From Octopus sinensis (taxonomy: Eukaryota): 64,000 bases of DNA. The stretch is from contig NC_043000.1 in NCBI RefSeq assembly GCF_006345805.1, forward strand, positions 74,896,001-74,960,000, in the 5' to 3' direction. Both the position numbers and the translations under genes were made by a program. Shown piece by piece: positions 58,171 through 59,498 of this stretch. Under the pieces are notes generated by a model that saw only the letters and a program-made list of their open reading frames with translations, was not told the origin of the DNA and did no database searches. Position 1 is the stretch's first letter; the number at the start of each line of letters is the position of its first letter.

Positions 58171-58326
58171 AATAAAATATAAAGAGTGGTCACTATATGG
58201 CTCACTCTAGCACTAGTTAATCCAAAATGTTTCAACCCAAAAAAATACAGTTTCCCATGAAAGTCAGTACGATTGTTTAGCTCACACGGACAGGGCAAAT
58301 AAAAAATAACAAAAATACAGATTATT

Positions 58327-58403
58327 TTTGGGAATTGTTTCGCTATAATGAATTAAATGTAATTTTACTTACAAAAAAATCCACTTGTAGCTCGTCAGCC
58401 AAA
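58327..58403 (-). ncRNA. Type I hammerhead, unit 1 (small deletion at the cleavage triplet)
   Basis: Minus strand TTTGG-CTGACGA-GCTA...TAGC-GAAA-CAATT-C-CCAAA. Confidence 0.7.
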
Positions 58404-58851
58404 CTATCTGGATGAAATCCACTCAATCACATGCCAGATTTTACCATAACGATAAATACACGTGTGGTTAATTGAACATTATAATCCGACGTTTAAATCA
58501 AATGCCCCAACTAACAGCGTCGCCAAACTTTCACGGAAAACAAATACTGCATTTAGAAATAAATGTAGCATAATTAATAATTAATTAATAAGGGTGAGAG
58601 ATAATACTATTTAATAGTATATCTATCAACACCAAGTGCCTAGTGCTCCGAGAAACCTGGATTACTATAATATTTATATAATAAATAATATTTTTACAAA
58701 ATAAATATAGAGAGTGGTCACTATATGGCTCACTCTAGCACTAGTTAATCCAAAATGTTTCAACCACAAAAAATACATGTTTCCCATGAAGTCAGTACCT
58801 ATGGTTAGCTCACACGGACAGGGCAAATAAAAAATAACAAAATACAGATTA

Positions 58852-58932
58852 TTTTGGGACAATTGTGTTCGCTATTAATGAATTAAATGTAATTTTCTTA
58901 CAAAAAAATCCACTGTAGCTCGTCAGCCAAAA
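58852..58932 (-). ncRNA. Type I hammerhead, unit 2 (1-nt insertion in GAAA)
   Basis: Minus strand TTTTGG-CTGACGA-GCTA...TAGC-GAACA-CAATTG-TC-CCAAAA; unit 3 (59386-59407) shows the intact TAGC-GAAA-CAATTG-TC-CCAAAA half. Confidence 0.75.
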
Positions 58933-59498
58933 CATATCTGGATGAAATCCACTCAATCACATGCCAGATTTTACCATAACGATAAATACACGTGTGTTCA
59001 ATTGAATTACATCCGACGTTATAATTGAAATGCCCCAACTAACAGCGCGCCAAACTTTCACGGAAAACAATACTGCATTTAGAAATAAATGTAGCATAAT
59101 TATAATTAATTAATAGGGTGAGAGAATTAGATACTAATTTAATAGTATATATCTATTCAACACCAAGTGGCCTAGTGCTCCGAGAAACCTGGATTACTAT
59201 AATATTTTATAATATATTATAATATTTTTACAAAATAAATATAAGAGAGTGGTCACTATATGGCTCACTCTAGCACTAGTTAATCCAAAAGGTTTCACCA
59301 CAAAAAATACATGTTTCCCATGAAAGTCTGTACGATTGTTAGCTCACACGGACAGGGCAAATAAAAAATAACAAAAATACAGATATTTTGGGACAATTGT
59401 TTCGCTATTAAATTAGTATCTAATTCTCTCACCCTTATTAATTAATTATATATATATATATATATATATTTATATACATATATATAATATATATACAA

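Follow-up and report, generated by a model that had tools for sequence, protein, structure and literature searches.

The described systems closest to the repeat array examined here are the non-long-terminal-repeat (non-LTR) retrozymes of animals and the Penelope-like elements (PLEs). Animal non-LTR retrozymes were described by Cervera & de la Pena 2020 (PMC7229834), whose discussion proposes an RNA circle as the template for retrotransposition and treats both this circle and the mobilizing enzyme as hypotheses. Li, Clavereau & Pollet 2026 interpreted retrozymes as non-autonomous derivatives of PLEs on the basis of co-occurrence and pseudo-LTR homology, stating that the 'precise mechanisms remain to be elucidated'; the sampling given in the accessible part of that preprint includes no mollusc (bioRxiv 10.64898/2026.07.22.740005). 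Reported retrozyme sizes are 170–400 nt for the RNAs (PMC7229834) and 51–972 bp in the preprint (bioRxiv 10.64898/2026.07.22.740005).

Insertions of Penelope elements are characterized by an inverted truncated copy, a tail of 30–40 bp at one end only and targeting of (TA)n (PMC8557442). In an element from the anole, this tail lies between two reverse-transcription start sites, and the protein cuts and extends both strands (PMC11167929). The minimal hammerhead ribozymes of PLEs cleave poorly (PMC4209133). Here we analyse an array of hammerhead-bearing repeats in a 64,000-nt stretch of Octopus sinensis DNA (the window). Judged from its sequence, the array is a copy of a young, genome-wide family of 535-nt non-coding hammerhead repeats.

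A hammerhead repeat array and its family

The original prediction described about 2.3 head-to-tail units of ~530 bp, free of open reading frames (ORFs) and each bearing a minus-strand type I hammerhead. Measured periods of 528 and 535 bp bear out this layout (Table 1), and in the family monomer (535 nt, 31% GC) the longest ATG-started frame is 46 amino acids (aa) and the longest stop-to-stop frame 62 aa. All of the predicted parts of the hammerhead were located: stem I (TTTTGG/CCAAAA), CUGACGA, stem II (GCUA/UAGC), GAAA, the palindromic ACAAUUGU of stem III and the GUC triplet, with stem II carrying an extension of about 47 nt. A covariance-model scan did not recover the motif: Rfam gave no hammerhead match in 52000–64000 at E ≤ 10, presumably because the long loop II defeats the model. 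The boundaries of the array also needed correction. Its start had been placed at 58183, and the insertion begins at about 58170; the terminal copy of an internal segment is inverted, as described, but is 46 nt long rather than 38 bp and constitutes a second arm.

Table 1 Features of the array and its flanks (window coordinates)
Feature	Position	Strand	Remarks
Left target flank, (TA)n tract	57462..58169	.	repeat annotation
Whole insertion	58170..59450	-	1.2-kb long arm of 2.3 units that ends at terminus B, joined to an inverted arm of 46 nt that ends at terminus A
Fixed terminus B, predicted reverse-transcription start 1	58170..58183	-	AT-rich, adjoins (TA)n; recurs as an end in 50 of the 51 insertions that have two arms
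Unit 1, 528 bp	58183..58710	-	4.2% gaps relative to the reference unit
Type I hammerhead of unit 1	58326..58403	-	as assembled, 2 nt missing at 58330-58340 (stem III/cleavage triplet)
Unit 2, 535 bp	58711..59245	-	2.4% gaps; 95-96% identity to best other copies
Type I hammerhead of unit 2	58852..58931	-	as assembled, 1 extra nt in GAAA at 58865-58870; predicted cut between 58858 and 58857
Unit 3, partial	59246..59411	-	stops at inversion joint
3′ half of hammerhead, intact (GAAA, stem III, GUC, 3′ arm of stem I)	59386..59407	-	5′ half lost at joint
Inverted second arm, 46 nt	59405..59450	+	ends at terminus A, the family's fixed end (predicted reverse-transcription start 2, 131 nt from B); 7 nt common to long arm
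Right target flank, (TA)n tract	59451..59696	.	repeat annotation

Every unit had been said to carry a different core lesion. This is true of units 1 and 2, but unit 3 has no lesion and only half of the motif, so the array as assembled holds no complete intact hammerhead. The attribution of the lesions to sequencing error is plausible. Gap rates among the units of the family are 0.6% at the median and 1.9% at the 90th percentile, and both full units of the window lie above these values; assembly error is therefore likely in this array and, on this comparison of copies, offers a plausible source of the two core lesions. The array sits in a TA tract between two ~97% identical copies of an endonuclease–reverse transcriptase (RT) LINE (53500–57440 and 59697–62500, +; ~5,340 bp apart), both frameshifted as assembled. 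Elsewhere, the window contains four short arrays of a related 61–66 bp tandem repeat (9781–10000, 11246–11401, 14680–14894 and 42102–42337) and AT-rich tandem arrays of 64–176 bp units with a common motif in opposite orientations (48635–49115 and 52108–53404).

The intact motif has 1,526 exact matches in the genome (G000) and its reversed control pattern none, a number that is not due to chance. A DNA search of the same genome returned 174 matches from 40 scored of 1,000 candidates, with 89–100% identity among the 150 listed, and the family matches are spread over many contigs. A second subfamily, at ~78% identity, accounts for 44 intact motifs. We analysed 69 loci, which together hold 71 insertions: 40 were drawn from the first 100 motif matches listed for contig C1, and 29 from among the best BLAST hits; extrapolation from the 1,526 motif matches puts the family very roughly at 600 loci. 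One locus, L093 (G000:C1:95539000–95548990), is a single insertion with a 17-unit arm and 16 intact motifs. Complete type I hammerheads in at least two consecutive units, a defining trait of non-LTR retrozymes, are thus present in the family, although not in the window copy as assembled. The family also has the non-coding, low-GC and self-paired monomer of retrozymes, and its 535-nt unit falls inside the range of 51–972 bp and above that of 170–400 nt.

Consistent with the predicted intact consensus, 182 of the 199 pieces from the 69 loci that span the hammerhead retain an intact core. Position N7, which is unconstrained, varies (C in 159, G in 12, A in 7 and T in 4), and loop III is AATT in 176 of the 182 intact-core pieces. 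The combination of an intact core, a variable N7 and a near-constant loop III therefore points to selection on the ribozyme. By computed folding, helix III has an energy of +2.4 kcal/mol as a hairpin and −6.4 kcal/mol as a dimer duplex, and in this model it is stable only in the latter form. Loop III is self-complementary, scored by eye with G–U pairs allowed, in 96 of 100 listed long-loop hammerheads of all families in this genome, in agreement with the dimer model of PMC4209133.

Structure extends over the whole unit. Folded as a circular monomer, it reaches −147.6 kcal/mol, compared with −103.2 ± 5.7 for 60 shuffles (z = −7.8), and is 67% paired. Among seven aligned units, double-sided changes occur in 11 of 144 pairs (2 of them in stem I; slid controls, 0–1) and pairing is kept in 98% of cells, a covariation signal that comes mostly from two lineages and concerns a structure derived from the same sequences. 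Between the two subfamilies, stem I has 2 compensatory pairs.

Insertion anatomy

Copies of the family have two fixed AT-rich ends, A and B, which lie 131 nt apart, at roughly 160 and 290 nt past the predicted cut on the RNA strand. Two inverted arms are present in 51 of the 71 insertions. Fifty of these 51 combine an A end with a B end and the remaining one has only one end assigned; A+A and B+B are each found in 0. After the removal of 3 duplicates, the A+B combination holds in 47 of 48 (p = 2e-13). Single-armed copies (n = 20) end at A in 12 cases and at B in 8. The inversion joints all have one polarity (51 of 51), with an overlap of at least 2 nt in 23. TA flanks were scored on the left of 68, on the right of 63 and on both sides of 61 of the 71 insertions, with a test window that took in 12 nt of the AT-rich element end. 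Because the flanks are (TA)n, any target-site duplication would be hidden.

An inverted shortened arm with a one-sided tail, here 131 nt, and a (TA)n target are features of Penelope insertions, and by analogy with the anole element A and B may be reverse-transcription start sites, one per strand. An ORF for a PLE RT and GIY-YIG endonuclease, by which an autonomous PLE is recognized, is absent. Taken together, these data provide good support for the conclusion that the family behaves as a non-autonomous PLE. The original prediction of a retrozyme or non-autonomous PLE is thereby upheld at the level of the family, given the intact core, the Penelope-type anatomy of the insertions and the lack of a joined ORF in the 69 loci.

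Proposed mobilization and RNA template

We consider it probable that this is a non-LTR retrozyme family mobilized by a Penelope-like RT/GIY-YIG endonuclease from a predicted monomeric RNA circle. The array would be transcribed on the hammerhead strand. Two minimal hammerheads, dimerized by way of their palindromic helix III, would excise a monomer for circularization by a host ligase. A helper protein, most likely from the Hydra clade, would nick both strands of a (TA)n site, the target observed at the insertions, and each nick would prime cDNA at a different fixed site in the RNA, corresponding to the observed end A or B. Both cDNAs would run round the circle for a random distance before their far ends are joined, yielding the inverted tandem arms and the asymmetric tail that the insertions display. 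A more specific version can be offered tentatively, with more doubt than conviction: each insertion would be the clone of one edited 535-nt circle, on which a dimer of a Hydra-clade Penelope protein primed two cDNAs, one per nicked strand of a (TA)n site, at fixed positions 131 nt apart. If true, hundreds of twin-primed, rolling-circle reverse transcription events would be recorded in the genome, left by a parasite without detectable sequence homology to its helper.

The 122 inner breakpoints are spread uniformly along the unit (KS p = 0.75); 2 fall near the cut site, where 4.8 would be expected. They ignore the cut site. The template was therefore not a cleaved monomer in linear form, copied as far as its end, which rules out a run-off template ending at that site. 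Both arms are longer than one unit in 19 of the 51 two-armed insertions, and the longest arm has 17 units. Across the 59 loci of subfamily 1, we found 17 private variants that every covering unit of the respective insertion carries, including 9 that are fixed across both arms, and variants common to several loci are mostly fixed within a locus; in L093, one private variant is fixed in 16 of 16 covering units. A circle explains such clonal multi-unit arms simply, because each arm would copy one monomer, although the private variants may also have been inherited from unsampled source arrays. A further 18 private variants are restricted to a subset of the units in their insertion, and 140 are confined to one unit; many of these are probably sequencing errors.

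The same Penelope-dependent element could instead be copied without any circle, from a linear multimer that stays uncleaved or from a monomer that is read repeatedly by template jumping, with the hammerhead kept for another step or cleaving only rarely. We regard this as rather unlikely, although several observations speak for it or against the circle. In vitro, hammerhead mutations were without effect on insertion by a Poseidon protein, uncleaved RNA was the main substrate and no reads of the anole element ended at the cut site (PMC11167929), and one of nine Xenopus retrozyme dimers was cleaved (bioRxiv 2026.07.22.740005). Breakpoints that ignore the cut site fit a multimer equally well. Distinct changes include more T>C than A>G (29:17, p = 0.004; for C>T versus G>A, p = 0.51), and this excess is found in single-unit variants (11 versus 5, p = 0.04) and not in shared private variants (1 versus 3), a pattern that per-unit editing of a multimer fits better than does a circle. 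However, a multimer needs some other way of building arrays as long as 17 units that are homogeneous and derive from one haplotype, must also spread private variants across both inverted arms, and leaves the conserved core and the whole-unit fold unexplained.

The unit was also present in the contigs of 20 of 21 listed sequencing runs, none of which is on record as RNA. Four were compared (X1, X4, X6 and X15), by means of contigs, which show no RNA starts or ends. Run X4 contains the unit as one closed contig of 565 nt (535 + 30), which can also come from a homogeneous tandem array, and X1 and X6 contain the wrap-round joint. T>C changes outnumber A>G changes in X1 (26:6, p = 1e-5) and X6 (15:5, p = 0.004), with 5:4 in X15, and many of the X1 T>C sites are absent from X15 and nearly invariant in ~200 genomic copies. 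The excess in X1 is faintly suggestive of A-to-I editing of the hammerhead strand; X1 and X15 come from different organisms, so alleles can mimic editing. These contigs hint that the array may be transcribed on the hammerhead strand. The monomeric circle is the template that we favour.

Candidate helpers and comparison with known systems

Two types of candidate helper are encoded in the genome. Elements with RT and GIY-YIG frames of 775–781 aa are taken to be members of the Neptune clade, judged by motifs given in PMC8557442. Hydra-type elements have open frames of 717 (L177), 727 (L178) and 906 aa (L167); the GIY-YIG profile used in the Penelope-like search was PF01541. The L167 element is complete, in pseudo-LTR/ORF/pseudo-LTR order; it has an inverted arm and a (TA)n target, and its group has a long-loop-II hammerhead, a palindromic helix III and two ends about 150 nt apart. 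In its 906-aa frame (L167:1413–4130, +), a long Asn/Ser-rich insertion takes the place of the CxCX5C linker, and related copies have open frames of 821–903 aa. The L167 protein gave no Pfam match, no PDB match and no BLAST match to Neptune. It aligns with ~700-aa homologues bearing RWK, DKT, CxxC and CxH motifs, and was placed in the Hydra clade by alignment to database homologues and by motifs given in PMC8557442. As the closest architectural match to the unit, L167 makes a Hydra-clade Penelope-like protein, by analogy, the most likely helper.

Other candidate elements vary in structure. L177 and L181 represent a Hydra family with an intact 717-aa frame and two ends apparently ~85 nt apart, L178 and L182 another with an intact 727-aa frame and a short-helix minimal hammerhead, and in a tandem Neptune-type element (L097:1174–4874, +) a 479-aa upstream frame overlaps the 781-aa RT–endonuclease frame. 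The long-loop-II hammerhead pattern has 5,702 matches in the genome, in several families, against 12 for a control, and the families checked are 3′ ends of Hydra-like PLEs or have a two-end tail of ~140–150 nt. A second long-loop-II type I hammerhead-like motif in the window (3066–3152, +) belongs to another family, has a shortened loop III and resembles motifs at the 3′ ends of Hydra-like elements (L164).

Nucleotide comparisons detected no sequence shared with the unit beyond AT-rich matches in Neptune L091 and L094–L100 or in Hydra L167–L174 and L177–L182, and no similarity to it in 16 other hammerhead loci except L159, itself a copy of the family. A search for a parent that included 30 GIY-YIG loci gave no unit-like pseudo-LTR, with at most 150 of 5,029–35,869 candidates scored, and tail alignments of the unit to Hydra/F2 scored no better than shuffles. 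These comparisons bear on an alternative that the original prediction had itself raised, in which the units are truncated pseudo-LTRs of a coding PLE and form no independent family. Such an origin would match that of other long-loop hammerhead families here, which are 3′ ends of coding Hydra-like elements, and the loci examined are 69 of very roughly 600, 12 of them with less than 1 kb of flank on one side; yet the unit is joined to a PLE frame in 0 of these 69, up to 17 copies lie head to tail without an ORF between them, and the Penelope-protein matches near 9 of the 69 loci always lie across a TA tract and are of both Neptune and Hydra types. We therefore consider it improbable. Family copies beside PLE ORFs (for example, at L091 and L092) were rejected as pseudo-LTRs because the TA tract intervenes, and the one widely spaced hammerhead pair that was checked, with a spacing of 1,664 bp on C13, proved to be a local duplication. 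The units could also be a DNA-level satellite whose hammerhead is vestigial and which spread through unequal exchange or via circles of extrachromosomal DNA. This accords with the tandem organization and is a route discussed in bioRxiv 2026.07.22.740005, but it is the least credible explanation and highly improbable, given short arrays dispersed over many contigs with two fixed ends, and is contradicted by the strict A+B rule, the single joint polarity and the TA target.

The independent, Penelope-mobilized retrozyme family that we favour can be compared with several known systems. Similar to animal non-LTR retrozymes, it is made up of units that lie in tandem, code for no protein and bear one type I hammerhead apiece; they have 31% GC and strong self-pairing and are dispersed as dimers to multimers in a genome that also contains PLEs. 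It differs from them in its extended helix II, which resembles that of PLE minimal motifs, and its cleavage and circles are predicted. Inverted two-armed insertions with two fixed ends, found in this family, are not described in the accessible parts of PMC7229834 or of the 2026 preprint. A literature search yielded neither a retrozyme from a cephalopod nor an account of the A+B rule for a retrozyme, within a literature whose supplements and subscription papers could hold either. The element class is already published, and the family is a further non-LTR retrozyme with unusually clean mechanistic footprints. It combines a retrozyme with clonal arrays and with the two-end footprint of Penelope in near-invariant form. 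Because the same genome has intact ORFs of Hydra and Neptune type, element and helper can be reconstituted together with the assay of PMC11167929.

With PLEs (Craig et al. 2021, PMC8557442), the family has in common the inverted 5′-truncated arm, a tail at one end and AT-rich or (TA)n targets, as well as a hammerhead near the 3′ end; in the anole element, the tail corresponds to two reverse-transcription start sites (Frangieh et al. 2024, PMC11167929). In contrast to PLEs, it lacks an ORF, its arms are multi-unit arrays and its tail is 131 nt rather than 30–40 bp; with the related families, the Penelope tail extends to ~130–150 nt. The Hydra-clade PLEs of this genome (L167, L177 and L178) resemble the unit in their (TA)n target and, in the L167 group, also in the hammerhead and two ends, whereas they are coding, have no significant nucleotide similarity to it and are candidate helpers. 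Non-autonomous Chlamys-type PLEs, such as MRC1 (PMC8557442), are likewise non-coding PLE parasites with multicopy head-to-tail insertions, but their 3′ sequence is in general common to them and an autonomous family, and canonical hammerheads are missing from most Chlamys elements, unlike the octopus family.
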